From the NCBI GenBank assembly GCA_049472395.1, contig JBLIRR010000001.1, positions 197,940-261,939 of the forward strand: a DNA stretch of 64,000 nt. Direction: 5' to 3'. Shown piece by piece: positions 26,584 through 61,279 of this stretch (its first letter is position 1; the number at the start of each line of letters is the position of its first letter). Origin of the DNA: a bacterium. Its GTDB lineage: Bacteria > SZUA-182 > DTGQ01 > JBLIRR01. The position numbers and the translations under genes were made by a program. The notes below the pieces were generated by a model. That model saw only the letters and a list, made by a program, of their open reading frames with translations, did no database searches and was not told the DNA's origin.

Positions 26584-26844
26584 ATGATTGAAGTTACAGT
26601 GTGCGTTGGCAGTTCATGCCATGTAAAAGGTTCTCGTGATTTGATTAAGTTGTTTAATAATCTTATTAGCGAATATAAACTTGAAGAGAAAGTGGCACTG
26701 AGGGGGTCCTTCTGTCTTGAACATTGCGCAGAGGGTTTTAATTGGAAAATCGGTGAAGAAATCATAAGCTGCAAGAATATCAAGGAGGCGGAAAAAATCT
26801 TTCGGGAAAAAATCATAGAACCTCTCATGGGAAAAGAAGAATGA
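26584..26844 (+). CDS. thioredoxin-like [2Fe-2S] ferredoxin (small hydrogenase-associated type)
   Basis: 86 aa with CxxxxSxC...C...C spacing (CVGSSCHVKG...CLEHC) as in NuoE/HndA-type 2Fe-2S folds. Confidence 0.55.
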   Translation: MIEVTVCVGSSCHVKGSRDLIKLFNNLISEYKLEEKVALRGSFCLEHCAEGFNWKIGEEIISCKNIKEAEKIFREKIIEPLMGKEE

Positions 26845-28511
26845 CCTTGCTCACTATCTCCCATCCTGACTGCAAAGATAAAGATTATTATAAGTGTTTA
26901 CGTTCGTGCCCTCTAAAAGCCATAAAAATTAGCAAGGGCACAATGGAAATAGTGGAAGAGCGTTGTATTGCTGAAGGACTCTGTATTAATATCTGCCCTC
27001 AAGGCGCCATCCATGCCATTGGTGAACTGCATAAGGTAAAAAAATATCTGGATTCCGGTATCCGAGTTATCGCTAGTTTGTCACCGACCACTTTACTCAC
27101 TTTTAGTGATGCTCAAAGGTTCGAGGATGCCCTTAAAACCCTCGGTTTTTCGGAAGTAGTATATATGCAGGATGCCGCGGCTTCACTGGTTTTGGAATAT
27201 GGTCAATTATTATCCAAGGTAAGAAAGCCCCTCATTTCCTCCCATTGTCCGGCTATTTGTGAGCTTGTGGAAAGATTTGTCCCAAATGCCTTGAATTATC
27301 TTGCGCCCATTATTGACCCTGCAGTTGCTCATGCTCGTATTATCAAAGCACAACAAGGAGAGGACAGCCGCGTTGTTTACATAGGGCCCTGTCTTTCTCA
27401 GAGAACCAGAGAAGGAGATGCCCTGGATGCCGTATTAACATTGAATGAAATGGATAACTGGTTTAAGGAAACTGATATTCAGATCCCCATTATGACCTCT
27501 CAGGATATACTACCAGCAGAGTCCTTTGCAGGACTTCTTTCTGTTTCCGGAGGTCTGTTGTCACTCTTGGAGCTTAAAGAGGCAGCAGCTGGAGGAAACA
27601 GTATTTGTATTTCAGGAATGGAAGAGTGTTTGAAATTTCTGAAAAATTTGCCTCCTCCTGAAATGGGCTTTGAATTTGCAGAGCTTATGGCGTGCCATGG
27701 CGGGTGTATCGGCGGCCCTTTTCTTCGAACGAAATTTGATATAGTGAGTAGGAAATTTTTATTATCTCGTAATAAGCCTTCTCGTATCCCCGCACCAGTA
27801 TCACAGGTGAACCTTACGAGAAAACCTCAAGCCAGGCCCTTTGTAGCCCCAAAGACTAATCCGGAAGAAATAGATTATGTTCTGCGCCACTATACGAGCC
27901 ACCTTGATTGCGGAATGTGTGGTTATGAAACGTGCTTTCAGAAGGCAAAAGCAGTATGCGAAGGAATGGCTGACGTTGAGATATGTATGCCAATGATTCG
28001 AACGCAAGGACAAGAGACGCTCTCAATTTTGGAGTATACACCTAACGGAGTCATCCTCATTGACACGGATACTCGGATACGCTTTGCCAATCCATCATTT
28101 TTAAAAATGTTTAAATGTGAACGAAAAGATATACTCGGTGAGCCAATAGCCAACTTCATCCACTCCCATTGTTTTGAAGAGGCTATAAACAATAATATAA
28201 GCTCTCTTTTTAAAAGAACAATTCCTAAACTGGGCATTAGCTACCGCGCGTGTATTTTCCCAATAAAAGGAGCCTCTCTTTACTGCGGGATCATAAACGA
28301 TATATCGGAAGAAGAAAATGCGAGGCGAGAATTCGACAAAGTCAAGGATGAGACCTTAAACAGGGCTCAAGAGGTTATTGGACGTCAAATGAAAACAGCA
28401 CAGGAGATTGCCGGGCTACTAGGGGAGACAACTGCTGAAACGAAAGTTTTACTTGTAAAACTAATGAACCTCTTTAATGAGGAGGAATCTCCAGGTGAAG
28501 CTCTTTTATGA
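26841..28511 (+). CDS. [FeFe]-hydrogenase-like sensory protein with PAS domain (HydS/HfsB-like, group C)
   Basis: N-terminal ferredoxin-like Cys motifs. H-cluster-like motifs SSHCPAICE (L1), IGPCLSQRTRE (L2) and ELMACHGGCIGGPF (L3). An extra CGMCGYETC...C cluster and a C-terminal PAS-like region follow. The start overlaps the previous stop (ATGA). Confidence 0.7.
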   Translation: MTLLTISHPDCKDKDYYKCLRSCPLKAIKISKGTMEIVEERCIAEGLCINICPQGAIHAIGELHKVKKYLDSGIRVIASLSPTTLLTFSDAQRFEDALKTLGFSEVVYMQDAAASLVLEYGQLLSKVRKPLISSHCPAICELVERFVPNALNYLAPIIDPAVAHARIIKAQQGEDSRVVYIGPCLSQRTREGDALDAVLTLNEMDNWFKETDIQIPIMTSQDILPAESFAGLLSVSGGLLSLLELKEAAAGGNSICISGMEECLKFLKNLPPPEMGFEFAELMACHGGCIGGPFLRTKFDIVSRKFLLSRNKPSRIPAPVSQVNLTRKPQARPFVAPKTNPEEIDYVLRHYTSHLDCGMCGYETCFQKAKAVCEGMADVEICMPMIRTQGQETLSILEYTPNGVILIDTDTRIRFANPSFLKMFKCERKDILGEPIANFIHSHCFEEAINNNISSLFKRTIPKLGISYRACIFPIKGASLYCGIINDISEEENARREFDKVKDETLNRAQEVIGRQMKTAQEIAGLLGETTAETKVLLVKLMNLFNEEESPGEALL

Positions 28512-29640
28512 GTGCGCCCATGGCCAAATACCTAAGTTACATGAAGAATTGTGTGGCGACAGTATAGCATTTTCTTTTCAGCCCGATAAAGTGATTATGG
28601 TTCTTTCCGATGGTCTAGGAAGCGGCGTTAAGGCTAATATTCTCGCAACACTGACGACGCGCATGCTTACCCATATGTTAGATAATGAATTGCCTTTAAA
28701 CGAGGTTGTAAAAACAGTGACTGAAACCCTGCCTGTGTGCAAAATACGTGGGCTTGCATATAGCACCTTTTCAGTTGCCCAGCTTTTCTCCAACGGAGAA
28801 GGCCGGTTAGTAGAGTTTGATAATCCATCAGTTTTTTATTTTAAAAACAAAAATCTTGAAAAATTGAGTTGGAAATCCACTACCATATCAGAAAAAAATA
28901 TTAAGGCATGCTCCCTAAAATTACAAGCCGGTGATTGGCTCATTTTCGTGTCTGATGGAGTAATAAGTGCGGGCATAGGCGGTCTTTATTCCTTAGGATG
29001 GGGGTGGGAGAAGGTTGCCCAATACCTGCATAATCATCTCGTCGATACGACATCAGCTCAGAAAATTGTAGATACTGTATTAGAAGCGGTAAGCAACCTC
29101 TATGTAGGTCCTCCTGGGGATGATGTCACCGTGGCCGTGGTTAAGGTGCGCTCTAAACGATACTTGACAATATTATTCGGCCCTCCGCTTAATTCTAAAG
29201 CTGATCCCATTGTGGTAGAAGAGCTGATGAAATCCCCCGGCTGCCGGGTAGTCTGTGGAGGCACTACCGCAAATATTGTATCCCGATTTTTAGGTAAGCC
29301 GCTGCACGTGGACCTTCAGACAATCACAGATGAAGTGCCGCCTCTGGGGCATATGGAAGGCCTCGATCTTGTGACCGAGGGCGTTTTGACCATGACTCAT
29401 CTTGTCTCAATGCTCAAAAATGGGGTCTCTGCAGATTCAAAGGAATTTTCAATAGATAGCTCAAGTACCTTGCTGAGGATGTTGACAGAGGCGGACAGCA
29501 TCAGATTGCTTGTGGGACAAGCAAAAAATCCAGCGCATCAAGATCCGAAACTCCCGGTAGAAATTAAAACAGAGCTTGCCAGGGAACTTCAGGATGCTTT
29601 AAAAAAAATGAATAAGGAATGTTCCATAGATTTCTTTTAA
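28477..29640 (+). CDS. PP2C/SpoIIE-family serine/threonine phosphatase
   Basis: CGDSIAF...VLSDGLGSGVKA and downstream DG...D motifs of PPM phosphatases. A GTG at 28495 preceded by GAGGAGG may be the true start. It overlaps the HydS-like stop. Confidence 0.7.
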   Translation: MRRNLQVKLFYECAHGQIPKLHEELCGDSIAFSFQPDKVIMVLSDGLGSGVKANILATLTTRMLTHMLDNELPLNEVVKTVTETLPVCKIRGLAYSTFSVAQLFSNGEGRLVEFDNPSVFYFKNKNLEKLSWKSTTISEKNIKACSLKLQAGDWLIFVSDGVISAGIGGLYSLGWGWEKVAQYLHNHLVDTTSAQKIVDTVLEAVSNLYVGPPGDDVTVAVVKVRSKRYLTILFGPPLNSKADPIVVEELMKSPGCRVVCGGTTANIVSRFLGKPLHVDLQTITDEVPPLGHMEGLDLVTEGVLTMTHLVSMLKNGVSADSKEFSIDSSSTLLRMLTEADSIRLLVGQAKNPAHQDPKLPVEIKTELARELQDALKKMNKECSIDFF

Positions 29641-52378: not shown

Positions 52379-52500
52379 GTTTCGTAAGGTCAATTAATGC
52401 GCTAATTGATTATAATTTGGAGAATAAAAGAATTGGATAGGATGGGATGTTATGGGACAATAAAAGGGCAAGAAATTATTCAATTTTTTTGGCATGGACT

Positions 52501-52556
52501 ATAAAAAATGACAAAGGGGAACAAGAAAAGCACATTCTTATTCTTATTCCCCTTTC
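52501..52556 (-). terminator. intrinsic terminator candidate downstream of the Gly/Tyr-rich protein gene
   Basis: Minus-strand GAAAGGGGAA-loop-TTCCCCTTTG followed by TCATTTTTTAT. Confidence 0.45.
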
Positions 52557-52616
52557 TTTACTGCGATAAAGAACTCTTTTTATATGCTATAAATATCCAT
52601 CTAAACCGTCGTGGTA

Positions 52617-53516
52617 TTAAAGAACGCCTGTTGCGGTCGTAATTGGTGCGGTCGTAACTGGTGCGACAGGGGTAGTATCAACAACAGGTGCTGTTACTGG
52701 ACTTGTTGTTCCCAATCCAAGGAGGGAATACCATGGACTCATCATTCCCATTCCATACATTCCACCCATACCATAAAGGCCACCATAGCCATACATATTA
52801 CCGTAGCCACCAAATGGTGAGGTGAGCGTTGAGGTATCCAGCGTACCCCACCACGGATAGTGGCTACCAAACATGCCGCCCATACCATAGGGAGAGGTAA
52901 GAGACGTAGTATCTAGGCCGCTCGGAGTATACCAGCGTCCAAACATGCCACCCATCCCGTAGGGATTGGTGAGAGTTGTCGTGTCTACTGTACCCGTGCT
53001 GGTAGGCGAATACCATCTTCCGAACATACCGCCCATACCGTAGGGAGAGGTAAGAGTTGTCGTGTCTACTGTACCCGTGCCGGTAGGCGAATACCATCTT
53101 CCGAACATACCGCCCATCCCATAGAGGGAGCTAAGAGTCGTGGTGTCTATTGTGCTTGTATCAGTAGGCGCATACAACCGGCCAAACATACCACCCATGC
53201 CATAGGGGTAACTGAGGCTTGTTGTATCTAAACTACCTGGATAATATCCGCCAAACATCCCTCCCATACCGAAAAGGCCTGCACCATAACCGCCATAGCC
53301 ACCATAGCCACCGTAACCACCGTAACCGCCAAGGCCACCCGTAAATGGTCTATAACCATACATTCCAGTATTTTGCACTCCATACCCCCCCATTAGTCCT
53401 AGTCCATACATATTGCCTGAAAAGAATTGGGCTTGGCTCTTAGGAGCAGATACAATTACAAATGAAATGATAAGCAGCACTGAAAATAAAATTTTAAAAT
53501 ACTCTCTCTTTAACAT
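52617..53516 (-). CDS. secreted Gly/Tyr/Met-rich repetitive protein (signal peptide, GYGGYGGYGG block, about six 27-aa repeats DTTTLTSPYGMGGMFGRWYSPT.TGTV, and a Thr/Pro/Val-rich tail)
   Basis: Signal peptide ending SQA. Shine-Dalgarno GAAGGAAGG. Strong periodicity at both the protein and nucleotide level. The alternative-frame ORF 52864..53097 is a shadow of the repeats. Confidence 0.6.
   Translation of the reverse strand: MLKREYFKILFSVLLIISFVIVSAPKSQAQFFSGNMYGLGLMGGYGVQNTGMYGYRPFTGGLGGYGGYGGYGGYGGYGAGLFGMGGMFGGYYPGSLDTTSLSYPYGMGGMFGRLYAPTDTSTIDTTTLSSLYGMGGMFGRWYSPTGTGTVDTTTLTSPYGMGGMFGRWYSPTSTGTVDTTTLTNPYGMGGMFGRWYTPSGLDTTSLTSPYGMGGMFGSHYPWWGTLDTSTLTSPFGGYGNMYGYGGLYGMGGMYGMGMMSPWYSLLGLGTTSPVTAPVVDTTPVAPVTTAPITTATGVL
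52975..53136. repeat. two near-identical 81-bp tandem copies inside the Gly/Tyr-rich gene, flanked by more degenerate copies (about 52800-53235)
   Basis: Copy 1 at 52975-53055 and copy 2 at 53056-53136 differ at only a few positions. Confidence 0.8.
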
Positions 53517-53796
53517 AACTCACTATCCTTCCTTCTAAACTTCTTACTTATTTTCTTAAAATTACATAAAACTATGCTGAAAATAAATTCAGACTGTGAA
53601 AAACCTTTCTTAATCCATCACCTCTCTTTGCTTGTTTTCTATGGTTAATATTTTCTTAATTTAGTATATCATTTTAATAGACACTCTCTTTATTATATTT
53701 CTTTCATTCTATATTTCAACTCGCACACTTAAGTTCCGGTAATTCTGATTTTGGAGGGATATCACGCAGTTCGTGGGCTCTGATTATATAACCATC

Positions 53797-53851: not shown

Positions 53852-56833
53852 TTACAATGTGAGCCCAAAGTAAATACTATAGGATGGATAATCCTCACTA
53901 TTCTCTATTTTTCCTAGCGGGATAGCACCTTTTAAATATACATGACTTAACCGATTCGGCCAATAATAGAAGGAATATCGTAGTGATCCTTCAGCAGATA
54001 TAAGCGTATCTTGGATATCATCATAATGTTTTAAATCACCAACCTCTATCTTAACTCCCGCGCTCATCCTTTCAAACCAGGAAACTTTATTACATACTGA
54101 AATAAAGGGATTAAACCGTAATTCCGCATACGCTCGAAATAATTGCCGCGCATATATGCTCCCATATGAATACCCGCTGAACATCTCTTCATGGCCTAAA
54201 ATTTCATACATAAATAGAGGTCCTTTGTGTGAGCGTATCTTTGTGAAATAAGAGAATCCATCCGTACCAAATCGCAGTGACATCCTCCTGTCAAAGAACA
54301 CTGCATTTTTCCCTAGGCCAAAATGTATTTTGGGCACACTACATGGCTTATAAAGAAACATGCTTTCTTTATATGACGAAAAACCAGGATATCTATTATT
54401 ATAAAGATCGATACCTGCATTGGCTTTAAAACTTGGTTGACCAAGTGTTCCAGGATCGAATGTGCTTCGCCCTGTATAGTGGAGCCAATCAAAACTCCAA
54501 TGATCACATTTATAGATAATACCATCATTCCTGCTCAGAATGCCGGTACCCGATTCACTATAGACCAGGGTGGGATCTGTGAGGGTATATTTGCTTTTTC
54601 GTGTGCGCCATTCATAACTATATGCAGCAGTAAGAATATCATCTTGGCAAAGATTGTATTGTGCACTTGTCTTCAGCTCCGTACTGTCATACATTTCAGC
54701 AATATACATCTCTATACTATCATTATACATATACACAATTTCATTAAAAAATTTTTGTAAAGAAACCTCTTCTTTTACAGAAAATTTCCAGATATCACAT
54801 TCACCCCACACTGTAGCAGACGGATAGATTTCCGGCACTGTTTTATACCCGAATAATCTGTTTATATTCAGGTTAAGCCCAGATTTAAAATTCCCGGGTG
54901 CATTATCCAAAAAAAATGTTCCGCCGAGAATCAGCTGGTTTTTGCTGTCAACGATTTCATCAGTAAAAGGTCGATATCTTATTTTATTAAAGCCTATAAA
55001 ATATTGGGGCATTGACACCATATTCGATTCGACCTCTCTGCTTTGAGGAGTATCAGCCAAAGCAGCTGTAACTTTCGATCTGGCCTCAACGGGCTTTATC
55101 CTGTCGGAAATAATAATGGGGCGCTCTTTTGAAAAAGGATTATTAAGTTTATATATGGTAAAACAGCCATCCTCATATACTGAACATGTCACAGTGCTCA
55201 TATTATTCTTATTGTCAATGCATGGATATCGCACCCCACCTCCCACATCAGTTATTTTATACCAGGTATTCTCATCTTCCTTCATATTGCACCAGTAAAG
55301 CTGTGGAGTTCCATCGAGAGTACTGACAAATAGAAGTCGGTCTGATCCAGCATATATACAATCAATAATATACGCATCTAAATTCTCCCAGAGGATATCG
55401 AATGAATCCTCTTTTAAAATGCCTGCTTTTACTTTACCCTCAGTTCCAATTGATATTACTGCTGATTGTGGTGTAATTTGTGAGATTTTATACACTCCCT
55501 GGCCATAATCAAATATCTTTAAGGTTTGAGGCGAAGATTTATTGGGATCCTGTAACACAATTTTGGTTTTCCCATTATTATATGACGCATACATAAGGTG
55601 ATTGTCATACACATCAAAGGCTATGCATCGTTTATCAGTTGTTGCCCGCTCAGGCTCGCCATCTTTATTTAATTTGAAAATATCATATCTTACACCACTT
55701 GAGAGTCTGCTGTTAACCCGTTTATTAAACCAAATTGTATTGGTAACAGAATCTTGCGTAAGGACCATGCCAACATCCTCTATTACCTTCTTAATATTCT
55801 TTTTATCCTCAGACATAATCATAAGATCATACCTGTTGTAATCATGCCTCCAATTGGCAATGGTATACATGCCTTCATCAACCGTGGCGACTTCAAAATT
55901 CATGAGCCGCTTTTTTCTCTCAAACAGAGGACTCCCATCTATCAGGTGATCCTTTTGGGGGTATTTGATCTTTAAGGTTTCTCTCCAATCTTCATATATC
56001 TGCTCAATAGTCTTGCCATAATGGGAAATAATCGCCTTCTCAAATCGCTCTTTTCGAATGAGACGACAAAGATCCTTAATGGATTTTTGAGGATAGTTAT
56101 GTACAAGGTAGAGCAGCAAATCAAAACCTTGATTATAGGCAAGCTCGGATTCTCTGGAACTTCCTTCAAAGCGTGCCATTTCATCAATGGTGAGAAGCCT
56201 GTTATGATAAAATGAATCCCTTAACAGCATTTCTCTAAAAGGATCCCGATACTCCGCCTTAAATTCATATGAACCCAATTGTGCGATACCTTCCACAAAC
56301 CATATAGGTAGCGCATTATGCTGATACTCGACAATCGACATCACGTTTTCTCCCTTAGGTTCAGAATAGTTTAACAGGCTGAGAGCAACAAGCATTGAGG
56401 ATTGTAATACTCGAAGAGAATAAATATGGGATAATTCATGAGACACAATTGTCCTGAGCCATTCATTTTCCCCGCGCATAAACATATCCGCTTTCCGGCA
56501 CTCTATGACCACGAGAGAATTATATCTATTTGCGCTTCCATTTATATAATCATTATTATTTTTTATAACGATCGCTATTTTTTTTTCATTAATATCATAT
56601 CCAAAATAATCCGCGAGCGTGTGGGCTGTCTCTTCAGCAATATCTAGGGTCATAAGGGCCAAATCTTTGTTTTTCTCCTTATATGAAATTTTAAAATGGT
56701 CGCTCTCAAGATGCTCCCATGTATTGAAAAGTTTACTACTTGCGACATTCGGTATAAGTGAGCATAGTATCATCCACCACACTATTCTCATTTTGAATGA
56801 TCTTTTTAAGGTAGCAGGCATATTTTTACTCAT
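53852..56833 (-). CDS. large secreted or outer-membrane protein with an N-terminal HExxH region, a beta-propeller-like (TolB/WD40-like) middle and a beta-barrel-like C-terminus (hypothetical)
   Basis: Signal-like N-terminus (RIVWWMILCSLIPNVASS), HELSHIY motif, repeated beta-strand-rich segments and a C-terminus rich in alternating aromatic residues (YSIYFGLTL). Confidence 0.55.
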   Translation of the reverse strand: MSKNMPATLKRSFKMRIVWWMILCSLIPNVASSKLFNTWEHLESDHFKISYKEKNKDLALMTLDIAEETAHTLADYFGYDINEKKIAIVIKNNNDYINGSANRYNSLVVIECRKADMFMRGENEWLRTIVSHELSHIYSLRVLQSSMLVALSLLNYSEPKGENVMSIVEYQHNALPIWFVEGIAQLGSYEFKAEYRDPFREMLLRDSFYHNRLLTIDEMARFEGSSRESELAYNQGFDLLLYLVHNYPQKSIKDLCRLIRKERFEKAIISHYGKTIEQIYEDWRETLKIKYPQKDHLIDGSPLFERKKRLMNFEVATVDEGMYTIANWRHDYNRYDLMIMSEDKKNIKKVIEDVGMVLTQDSVTNTIWFNKRVNSRLSSGVRYDIFKLNKDGEPERATTDKRCIAFDVYDNHLMYASYNNGKTKIVLQDPNKSSPQTLKIFDYGQGVYKISQITPQSAVISIGTEGKVKAGILKEDSFDILWENLDAYIIDCIYAGSDRLLFVSTLDGTPQLYWCNMKEDENTWYKITDVGGGVRYPCIDNKNNMSTVTCSVYEDGCFTIYKLNNPFSKERPIIISDRIKPVEARSKVTAALADTPQSREVESNMVSMPQYFIGFNKIRYRPFTDEIVDSKNQLILGGTFFLDNAPGNFKSGLNLNINRLFGYKTVPEIYPSATVWGECDIWKFSVKEEVSLQKFFNEIVYMYNDSIEMYIAEMYDSTELKTSAQYNLCQDDILTAAYSYEWRTRKSKYTLTDPTLVYSESGTGILSRNDGIIYKCDHWSFDWLHYTGRSTFDPGTLGQPSFKANAGIDLYNNRYPGFSSYKESMFLYKPCSVPKIHFGLGKNAVFFDRRMSLRFGTDGFSYFTKIRSHKGPLFMYEILGHEEMFSGYSYGSIYARQLFRAYAELRFNPFISVCNKVSWFERMSAGVKIEVGDLKHYDDIQDTLISAEGSLRYSFYYWPNRLSHVYLKGAIPLGKIENSEDYPSYSIYFGLTL

Positions 56834-60481: not shown

Positions 60482-61279
60482 ATGGATATATTTGAAATGC
60501 AGGTACGTTCAATAAAATATAGAATTTTTATTTTTCTCTTCCTCTGTCTTTTTCCGGGCAGAGGCTTTAGTGCGGCACAAACCGCCCAACAATCACTCAC
60601 GGACTACAACCTATGGAATTTATATGGAGGAGCCAGCGATGTATACCTTACGCTCAAAGATGGATCACATAAAAAAACAAAGGTACCCTTAAAGGAATAT
60701 GGCTTTTTATTGGAATTTGAGGATAAATATGACAAATGGAAGGTTGATTTTTCATTTTTCCAATGGAACGATAGTCAACTGCAAGGGGAAGATTTCTCAG
60801 TAAAGCTGAACTATCTTCCATTTAAAACCAAAAAAGGGGGGATCTTTACCCGGCTTAATCCCTATATAGGAGGCTCCCTTAATTACCATTACAACAAAAT
60901 AAATCTTCCTGACGCTAATCCGGAGCCCACTGGTTGGGTTAATCCTTATCAGCAGGCTATAAAAGGATATGGCGCAGGATTGCAGACGGGGATGAAGATT
61001 AAGGATATCCCTTTTAAAGGCACTATATGGCACACAGAACTTGGCGGCATAGTCTATACGTATAAATCCTCCTTACTGGAAGAAGAATTTCTGTCTGGCA
61101 TCTCTTTTACCCTAGATACGCATTTTAAAAAAAGATTTTATTATATTTTCCTTGGATTAGGGTATCAATTGAGACAATCAGATTTTGATGGTACTTATTT
61201 AAGCGATCAAGATAAATATTATCCGAGCTCTCAATTTACCCATCATCTTTTTTATATTAATCTTTCTTATCCGTTTTAG
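60482..61279 (+). CDS. putative outer-membrane beta-barrel protein (hypothetical)
   Basis: N-terminal signal (FIFLFLCLFPGRGFSAAQT), alternating hydrophobic beta-strand patterning and a C-terminal ...YINLSYPF ending in Phe. An alternative start lies at 60497. Confidence 0.45.
   Translation: MDIFEMQVRSIKYRIFIFLFLCLFPGRGFSAAQTAQQSLTDYNLWNLYGGASDVYLTLKDGSHKKTKVPLKEYGFLLEFEDKYDKWKVDFSFFQWNDSQLQGEDFSVKLNYLPFKTKKGGIFTRLNPYIGGSLNYHYNKINLPDANPEPTGWVNPYQQAIKGYGAGLQTGMKIKDIPFKGTIWHTELGGIVYTYKSSLLEEEFLSGISFTLDTHFKKRFYYIFLGLGYQLRQSDFDGTYLSDQDKYYPSSQFTHHLFYINLSYPF

Follow-up and report, generated by a model that had tools for sequence, protein, structure and literature searches.

The window analyzed here is a 64,000-nucleotide stretch of bacterial DNA (contig JBLIRR010000001.1 of assembly GCA_049472395.1, positions 197,940 to 261,939 of the forward strand), and the gene of interest lies on its minus strand at 52617..53516. 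This open reading frame (ORF), taken from the ORF listing and found in frame in its orthologues, starts with ATG and encodes a repeat protein of 299 amino acids followed by a stop codon. A preliminary description of the locus had presented the product as a secreted glycine-, tyrosine- and methionine-rich protein built from tandem repeats, and had inferred from its composition a self-assembling or matrix-type surface protein, not an enzyme. The repeat ORF is a real, conserved bacterial gene, and by its sequence the product founds a small new family with no match to described families. It is probably a non-enzymatic structural protein. It is tentatively read here as an exported beta-arch repeat protein that self-associates in the envelope or matrix, a reading given somewhat less than an even chance of being correct.

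The gene appears to have its own transcription signals, namely a promoter-like site and a terminator-like hairpin. A Shine-Dalgarno-like sequence, GAAGGAAGGA, was recognized by reading the sequence 9 nt 5' of the ATG (53526..53535, minus strand, as are all features of this gene given below). A consensus scan returned a candidate sigma-70-like promoter, TTGAAA-16-TATAAT (11 of 12 positions), about 175 nt 5' of the start codon (53692..53719); it is no more than a match to the consensus, and such sites are about as numerous in the region as shuffled sequences would lead one to expect. Alignment of the three upstream regions, those of the window gene and of the two orthologues described below, revealed invariant columns that form a conserved 5' leader element (AATAATAACCA ... 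AGAGGTGAT ... AAGAA ... T-run; 53599..53652) common to all three loci. The AGAGGTGAT part of this element resembles an extended Shine-Dalgarno sequence; no ORF following it is conserved across the three loci, and Rfam gave no match at E ≤ 1 around the gene, the leader included. About 60 nt past the stop codon lies an intrinsic-terminator-like hairpin with an 18-pair stem (AAAGGGGAAUAAGAA...UUCUUGUUCCCCUUU) followed by a U-run (52501..52555). The RNA of 52480-52616 on this strand folds at -33.7 kcal/mol (z = -3.6), and none of 200 shuffles folded equally well; the hairpin was absent from the output of the consensus terminator scan.

The first 29 amino acids (53430..53516) were read from the sequence as a Sec-type signal peptide without a lipobox, and Sec export is predicted. 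Judged by eye, a positive n-region (MLKREYFK), a 15-residue hydrophobic core (ILFSVLLIISFVIVS) and a c-region (APKSQA) with small residues at -3 and -1 lead to a predicted SQA/Q cleavage site. The n/h/c layout and an (S/G)-x-A cleavage site before Q were kept in both orthologues, and amino acids 3-22 were helical in the AlphaFold2 (AF2) model. The signal peptide is followed by a Gly/Tyr-rich low-complexity region (amino acids 30-96, 53229..53429), the length of which differs among the orthologues and which contains a GYGGYGGYGGYGGYG block and a first, truncated motif, GLFGMGGMFGGYYPGSL. The GYGGYGGYGG block that the preliminary description had placed after the signal peptide was located at amino acids 60-80 as GGLGGYGGYGGYGGYGGYGAG, in a Gly/Tyr-rich stretch also given as GGYGGYGGYGGYGGYG, and it produces periods of 9, 18 and 27 bp at 53282-53344 in the Tandem Repeats Finder (TRF) analysis.

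Five canonical repeat units of 27, 27, 27, 24 and 25 amino acids make up the central part of the protein (52839..53228; DTTxLTSPYGMGGMFGRWYSPTxTGTV), with the three 27-residue units spanning amino acids 97-177. They are succeeded by a degenerate terminal unit (amino acids 227-268, 52713..52838, DTSTLTSPFGGYGNMYGYGGLYGMGGMYGMGMMSPWYSLLGLG) ending in a methionine cluster, YGMGGMYGMGMMSPWYSLL, and the region of this cluster was kept in both orthologues as YGMGMM(N/S)P(M/W)(Y/F)SL(F/L). The C-terminal tail (amino acids 269-299, 52620..52712) is rich in Thr, Pro, Val and Ala and has a hydrophobic end, TGVL; no known sorting signal was recognized in it. Conservation of the tail extends beyond its composition, as PVAPVTT..AP(I/V)TT is present in all three proteins.

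The whole protein contains 22% Gly, 14% Thr, 10% Tyr, 8% Ser, 8% Leu and 7% Met, and no Cys. In the mature chain of about 270 amino acids there is no Lys, Glu or Cys, and the five Arg and eight Asp residues leave it with 4.8% charged positions; it further comprises 24.8% Gly, 16.7% aromatic residues, 23% Ser plus Thr, 7.8% Met, two Gln, four Asn and a single His. Its methionines are spaced as nine MxxM motifs, one MxM and one MM. Charge-hydropathy analysis placed the mature chain on the 'folded' side. No catalytic-looking motif was found in it, which, together with the conserved signal peptide, agrees with the earlier characterization of a secreted-looking, non-enzyme-like Gly/Tyr/Met-rich protein.

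TRF recovered an 81-bp period with 3.4 copies and 83% matches at 52929-53207. The proposed number of about six copies corresponds to the five canonical units plus the degenerate sixth, and the GMGGM[FY]G motif occurs seven times in the window protein, with one motif copy reading GLFG. In the best register, the adjacent 81-bp copies 52955-53035 and 53036-53116 are identical at 76 of 81 positions (93.8%, where the preliminary description had given about 93%); in a register anchored on the Asp, the same pair agrees at 73 of 81 positions (90%). The claim of near-perfect 81-bp repeats therefore stood for this one pair and not for the other copies, which are 68-83% identical overall, the first unit sharing 68-70% DNA identity with the next two. 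A degenerate DNA pattern spanning two motifs matched the window five times, against 0.00 matches expected from 100 shuffles. At the protein level, an 18-residue motif that includes DTTxLTSP is nearly invariant, and eight positions in the 27 residues of a unit are hydrophobic or aromatic. Every unit carries one Asp, and an Arg is found in four of the five canonical units. The canonical units begin with D-T-T, and sites of this type number 6, 7 and 8 in the three orthologous proteins.

Relatives were reached through the neighboring gene upstream, which encodes a 993-amino-acid protein, because the repeat protein and its genome were absent from the searched collections. Two contigs were found to carry this neighbor at 70-73% identity and, next to it, an orthologue of the repeat gene in the same position and orientation. 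One orthologue encodes 292 amino acids (L006:11238-12116, from the metagenome-assembled genome (MAG) GCA_049472375.1) and the other 329 amino acids (L007:13451-14440, JGI 3300021183), the latter in a locus with synteny from def/fmt to the genes for carbon monoxide dehydrogenase/acetyl-CoA synthase (CODH/ACS). The three proteins are pairwise 65-68% identical, and the reading frame is intact in both relatives. The ratio of nonsynonymous to synonymous substitution rates (dN/dS, Nei-Gojobori method) was 0.20-0.23 and the proportion of synonymous differences (pS) about 0.62, so that synonymous sites are near saturation; for comparison, the neighboring gene gave a dN/dS of 0.13. Every one of the 24 motifs in the three proteins had GMGGM unchanged, with a preceding Tyr (YGMGGM) in 21. 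Both Met residues were invariant in the 24 motifs, the aromatic position that follows GMGGM accepted Phe, Tyr, Trp or Leu, and a given Gly position of the motif was encoded by up to four synonymous codons within one gene. Because the residues are invariant while synonymous variation is free, the peptide motif must be kept by selection and not by recent DNA copying, with the exception of the one unit pair.

The repeat arrays of the three loci differ in length and number of units, which supports the ongoing repeat expansion or contraction proposed in the preliminary description. The window gene has an 81-bp unit, seven GMGGM motifs and one 94%-identical pair; its relative in the MAG (L006) has a unit of about 90 bp and also seven motifs, with no recent duplication noted; the JGI relative (L007) has a 72-bp unit and ten motifs. 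Inside the latter a 123-bp segment is tandemly duplicated with 97% identity (L007:14048-14304), which shows a very recent repeat gain in that lineage. Since unit length and copy number differ among the lineages and a fresh duplication is present, repeat expansion and contraction appear to be ongoing. Differences in unit length, both within and between orthologues, are confined to the segment after GR.Y.P, and this segment therefore looks loop-like. The locus is a clean case of a coding repeat array whose peptide is held by selection even as the length and number of its units drift from one close lineage to the next.

No match to the repeat protein was found in Pfam, NCBIfam, PHROGs or the sequences of the Protein Data Bank (PDB), in agreement with the statement that it resembles no well-known family; the intact frame in both relatives, with a dN/dS of about 0.2, was accompanied by no homologous characterized structural family. 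No true relative was obtained by word-indexed phmmer, by phmmer of 1.84 billion representatives, or with a profile of the three orthologues. In a local HMMER test the orthologues were detected with E-values of 1e-65 to 1e-72, so the empty searches reflect collections that lack the query and its orthologues and not low-complexity filtering, and the absence of matches is no proof of rarity. In the genome contig collection, a protein query gave 52 pattern matches, none of which was confirmed. The two-motif pattern, which works on the window and on both orthologous loci, found no match in metagenome contigs, and the two matches there to back-translated YGMGGMFGR both lay in the antisense frame of an unrelated gene. 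Neither the window nor the fetched loci contained a paralogue of the repeat protein.

The search of 1.84 billion representatives returned six matches (E 2e-5 to 5e-4), of which five were BspA/DUF285 repeat proteins. Membership in that family was rejected, as the Pfam models gave no match and the unit hidden Markov model (HMM) did no better than on shuffled sequences. With hmmscan up to E 10, no family was assigned to the repeat protein; LRR_5 was recognized in P0005 and DUF285 in P0007, two proteins scanned along with it. A 19-unit DUF285 HMM scored -5.4, -13.5 and -8.3 bits on the three members, against shuffle maxima (200 shuffles each) of +3.2 to +4.4. In hhalign, the match of the family alignment to the leucine-rich repeat (LRR) proteins reached a probability of 84%, where alignments that had been reversed or shuffled by column reached 0.1%, a control that is biased because the compared proteins had been selected for their similarity to the query. 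The sixth match, P0003, has a 27-residue period and a pattern, DTT.LTS...YSPT, that mimics the window repeat. It was rejected as a chance match, namely a translated 81-bp minisatellite with 98% identical copies on a 2.3-kb TARA scaffold (L014:1334-1581), where a table-11 translation does not reproduce the database protein. Chance periodic matches therefore arise at this score level.

The sole match of the indexed search was P0001, a metagenomic protein of 291 amino acids (loci L001-L003) composed of a signal peptide, a Gly/Tyr region, GGLYGMGGMYGMGLMNP, a Pro/Thr linker and an unrelated C-terminal domain of about 130 amino acids. It shares the layout and GGLYGMGGMYGMG(L/M)M(N/S)P with the repeat protein; it was not accepted as a homologue, the pairwise composition-adjusted BLASTP match being weak (E 4e-4). 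P0001 is possibly a distant analogue, and the Gly/Tyr/Met module may have been reused elsewhere. The profile search returned nothing but secreted eukaryotic Gly/Tyr/Met-rich proteins (P0047-P0050, E 3e-3 to 5e-2), which were rejected as similar in composition only, with no alignable motif. From the sequence, an outer-membrane barrel, a lipoprotein, PEP-CTERM, LPXTG and S-layer proteins and a Gly-rich bacteriocin were likewise rejected, because the chain lacks Cys, a C-terminal aromatic beta-signal and any sorting motif, neither an immunity nor an export partner accompanies it, and AF2 gave no barrel.

The window is an ordinary chromosomal region of about 40% GC that includes a Wood-Ljungdahl cluster, formyltetrahydrofolate synthetase (FTHFS), SelB, RNase Y, alanyl-tRNA synthetase (AlaRS) and 6S RNA, and the host looks like an anaerobe. 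The secreted hypothetical neighbors mentioned in the preliminary description are indeed present. Two SPFH proteins are encoded downstream of the repeat gene; upstream of it lies the gene for the 993-amino-acid protein (53852-56833, minus strand), and beyond this gene are two paralogous DNRLRE-domain proteins and a small outer-membrane-like protein. The AF2 model of the 993-amino-acid protein, built on a 33-sequence alignment, had a mean predicted local distance difference test (pLDDT) of 87 and a predicted TM-score (pTM) of 0.85, and it comprised a signal or transmembrane helix, a peptidase-MA domain of the zincin type, a beta-propeller and, at the C-terminus, a barrel of 16 strands. The HExxH motif is invariant, and POTRA domains are absent. 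In the PDB, the barrel was best matched by the Omp85-type proteins BamA, TamA, FhaC, Sam50 and CdiB, with a Foldseek E-value of about 1e-5 and TM-scores of 0.57-0.62 on the target for BamA, TamA and FhaC. The neighbor might conceivably export the repeat protein or process it, but the two genes are paired only in the close clade. MAGs of Desulfobacterota-like bacteria, Fibrobacterota, Spirochaetes and Delongbacteria contain homologues with 26-74% identity to this neighbor, annotated as 'hypothetical' or 'biopolymer transporter Tol', and its architecture is unusual.

The two DNRLRE-domain paralogues (NCBIfam NF033679; 57120-58445 and 58801-60201, minus strand) both have a signal peptide and a common C-terminal TCFINS motif. 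One scores above the NF033679 cut-off and the other just below it, and both are kept at 68-73% identity in the two orthologous loci. The last gene of this group, on the plus strand (60482-61279), encodes a protein of 265 amino acids that begins with a signal peptide, has ...LSYPF as its last residues and resembles a small outer-membrane beta-barrel; it matched no family and is 45-48% identical in the same two loci. Elsewhere on the plus strand, a 6S RNA (Rfam RF00013, 74 bits) was located at 1243-1422, just upstream of the RNase Y gene, and a protein combining a [FeFe]-hydrogenase large-subunit domain with PAS domains, followed by a SpoIIE-type phosphatase, is encoded at 26841-29640. By their domains, these two look like a sensory-hydrogenase signaling pair.

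The observation made in the preliminary description was thus confirmed, and its interpretation as a self-assembling matrix-type protein is plausible. In the mechanism proposed here as the most economical one, cleavage of the signal peptide would release an almost uncharged chain, in which five to eight short units lie between a head rich in Gly and Tyr and a tail rich in Thr and Pro. Each unit of 24-30 amino acids would form a beta-arch, with a strand at (T)VDTTxLT, a turn at SPY-GMGG, a second strand at MFGR(W/Y)Y and a turn at (S/N)P(T/S)G, and the stacked units would build a beta-solenoid or cross-beta core. Tyr/Phe/Trp and Met side chains arranged in ladders would hold this core together, along with an Asp/Arg pair in each unit. 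If the stack continued between molecules, fibers or a cohesive gel might result, as in functional amyloids and aromatic/Gly-rich structural proteins, located in the periplasm or at the cell surface. Unequal recombination among units would shift the copy number between lineages while selection holds the peptide motif. Two beta-prone segments per unit (TVDTTTLT and MFGRWY), separated by the Pro/Gly-rich SPYGMGG and SPTGTG, are consistent with this arrangement. An unreliable single-sequence AF2 model (pLDDT 45) placed strands on MFGRWY and TVDT and coil on SP..G in every unit.

A more specific form of this proposal, drawn by analogy and regarded as unlikely, would make the protein an exported bacterial equivalent of the cohesive aromatic/Gly domains of eukaryotes. 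YGMGGMFG stickers and Thr-rich segments would then form a reversible cross-beta gel or fiber network in the periplasm or between cells, with Met-aromatic contacts as the key cohesion, and the neighboring peptidase/Omp85-like protein might export or trim the chain. If so, the protein would represent a class of bacterial matrix material that has not been described before, with a motif of its own and unrelated to curli, Fap and TasA. Self-association of the beta-arch repeats in the more general sense would add a new family, defined by sequence, to the bacterial proteins that assemble themselves in the envelope or matrix. It would extend the short list of bacterial functional-amyloid and gel-forming proteins by a chemistry that is uncommon in bacteria, namely Gly/Tyr/Met motifs in a chain free of Lys, Glu and Cys. 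YGMGGMFG is a compact, strictly conserved motif, and its methionine dependence is directly testable. At present the family is known from just three related uncultured genomes, and secreted repeat proteins restricted to one lineage are a common sight in bacteria.

Several observations weigh against self-association of beta-arch repeats. The AF2 model of the repeat protein had a mean pLDDT of 45 and a pTM of 0.29, with values below 50 over most of the chain, and its strand pattern is only a hint; the support for assembly comes from features of the sequence and of this model. No dedicated secretion or nucleation partner of the curli/Fap type was found among the neighbors. The strict invariance of Met, set against the tolerant aromatic position, points to Met-specific chemistry beyond generic packing, and both methionine-aromatic contacts within the beta-arch model and soft-metal binding are in play as its source. 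The 18-residue motif is conserved above what is usual for disordered gel-formers, so that a discrete folded domain is equally possible. Furthermore, the repeat gene adjoins the Omp85-like gene only in the close clade: homologues of the 993-amino-acid gene at about 40% identity, including that of Candidatus Magnetomorum HK-1, have no repeat-gene neighbor, and two MAGs (L004 and L005) whose SPFH proteins, at 77-79% identity, are as close as those of the JGI locus have no repeat gene upstream of the SPFH pair. From these absences, the family looks lineage-restricted and patchy.

Alternatively, the product could be a periplasmic or surface protein that binds or buffers soft metals of the Cu(I)/Ag(I) type, with MGGM acting as an MxxM 'Mets' motif flanked by aromatics and Gly letting the chain wrap around the ion. 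Trp, Tyr and Phe would contribute cation-pi contacts of the kind made in CusF, and five thioethers within ten residues would come from the C-terminal cluster YGMGGMYGMGMM. MxxM and MxM motifs bind Cu(I) in Ctr1, CopA/PcoA and CueO, and CusF uses Met plus Trp. The nine MxxM motifs of the mature protein fit such a role, as does the conservation of both Met residues in every motif, although Leu, Ile and Val are one mutation away, synonymous sites are saturated and the neighboring aromatic position tolerates substitution; in addition, the Met cluster is the part that the otherwise different P0001 has in common with the repeat protein. Nevertheless, metal binding is considered improbable. Bacterial Met-rich copper proteins usually pair Met with His or Asp, and the chain offers a single His and no Cys; no cop, cus, pco, sil, P-type ATPase or multicopper-oxidase gene was present among the window genes scanned with Pfam and NCBIfam; sulfide should, as we infer, keep free Cu(I) very low in an anaerobic Wood-Ljungdahl host; and the DTTxLTSP half of the unit, which is as conserved as the Met motif, would be left unexplained. 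A further possibility is a folded, monomeric beta-solenoid or LRR-like protein with a distant origin in BspA/DUF285 repeats. DTTxLTS....MF would then correspond to the DTSxVTxMxxMF core, and the protein, as an adhesin or receptor module, would bind a partner and not polymerize. The five BspA/DUF285 proteins among the six matches were covered over several units, and the hhalign probability, the eight hydrophobic or aromatic positions per 27 residues with their strongly conserved 18-residue motif, and the position on the 'folded' side of the charge-hydropathy plot all point in the same direction. This reading, too, is considered improbable: Pfam DUF285 and LRR_5 gave no match even at E ≤ 10, and the unit HMM reached -5 to -14 bits where shuffles reached maxima of +3 to +4. 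The hhalign targets were preselected, and E-values are inflated when repeats are matched to repeats. The Cys/Leu core positions that define the BspA/DUF285 repeats are absent (there is no Cys), the correspondence requires an insertion of three residues, AF2 yielded no confident solenoid, and the P0003 minisatellite matched by chance at the same score level.

The D-T-T unit starts can also be accommodated by a heavily O-glycosylated surface or sheath glycoprotein, in which they and the Thr/Pro/Ala tail would be glycan sites, the Gly/aromatic segments would serve as anchors or spacers, and the neighboring Omp85-like barrel-protease might export or trim the product. An O-glycosylation sequon, D-(S/T)-(A/I/L/M/T/V), is known from Bacteroidota. 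The unit starts of all three proteins fit it, the tail is rich in Thr, Pro, Ala and Val, and the DNRLRE-domain neighbors and the barrel-protease are envelope proteins. This explanation is nonetheless judged quite unlikely: the sequon is established in Bacteroidota and not in the present, probably Desulfobacterota-like, lineage; Pfam and NCBIfam scans revealed no glycosyltransferase or O-oligosaccharyltransferase gene near the repeat gene; the barrel-protease occurs with no repeat gene in more distant genomes; and glycosylation does not account for the invariant YGMGGMFG.

The arrangement of the locus recalls two-partner secretion (TPS), as the gene of an exported repeat protein lies directly downstream of a gene with a modeled Omp85-like barrel. 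It differs in that the repeat protein has no TPS (hemagglutination-activity) domain and continues after its signal peptide with Gly/Tyr low-complexity sequence, that the barrel protein carries a peptidase and a beta-propeller in place of POTRA domains, and that the pairing is found only in the close clade. With the BspA LRR/DUF285 repeats (PF13306, PF03382) the protein shares a period of 24-27 amino acids and a D-T-[ST]-x-[LV]-T ... M-F sub-pattern, whereas the conserved Cys/Leu core of those repeats is missing and a Gly-rich insertion is required. The Met-rich Cu/Ag segments of Ctr1, CopA/PcoA, CueO, SilE/PcoE and CusF are similar in MxxM spacing, in their aromatics and in belonging to exported proteins, yet here the His/Asp partners, nearby copper-resistance genes and any sequence similarity are missing. 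An identical GMGGM string occurs in the GGM tails of GroEL and in the G/M region of Sis1, which are short cytosolic chaperone tails or linkers with no homology to this protein and not exported repeat proteins. Published accounts describe these G/M-rich segments as flexible and weakly hydrophobic, and as contacting other polypeptides.

Curli CsgA and Pseudomonas FapC are, like the repeat protein, Sec-exported and non-enzymatic, with a handful of imperfect, Gly-rich repeats of 20-30 amino acids, each a putative strand-turn-strand rung with conserved aromatics, and with a repeat number that varies by lineage. They differ in sequence, as there is no similarity and no Pfam Curlin_rpt or Fap match in the repeat protein, the curlin repeat S-X5-Q-X-G-X-G-N-X-A-X3-Q does not occur in the mature protein, and Met, Tyr and Thr dominate in place of a Gln/Asn ladder. 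No partner of the csgBEFG or fapABDEF type was found among the neighbors (two SPFH, peptidase-propeller-barrel and two DNRLRE proteins). Gly/aromatic motifs with Thr/Ser spacers and little charge characterize the cohesive GLFG nucleoporin domains, the low-complexity aromatic-rich kinked segments (LARKS) of FUS and hnRNPA1, and suckerins. The repeat protein resembles these eukaryotic domains in its xGxFG and GYG motifs, Thr/Ser-rich spacers and near absence of charge, and its proportions of charged, aromatic, Gly and Ser plus Thr residues lie within an FG/LARKS-like composition. Plant and tick glycine-rich proteins and Gly/Tyr/Met-rich shell-matrix proteins are further compositional likenesses. 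This is an analogy of composition and not homology, and the bacterial 18-residue motif is far stricter than disordered spacers; the signs of FG/LARKS-type disorder are mixed, with an AF2 pLDDT below 50 set against the near-invariant motif and the 'folded' charge-hydropathy. To judge from its sequence features, the repeat protein belongs to none of the compared systems (curli/Fap, BspA LRR, GGM, TPS and cohesive domains). In function it would be nearest to the curli/Fap subunits, and in composition it is nearest to the eukaryotic aromatic/Gly cohesive domains and to GGM-type flexible segments.

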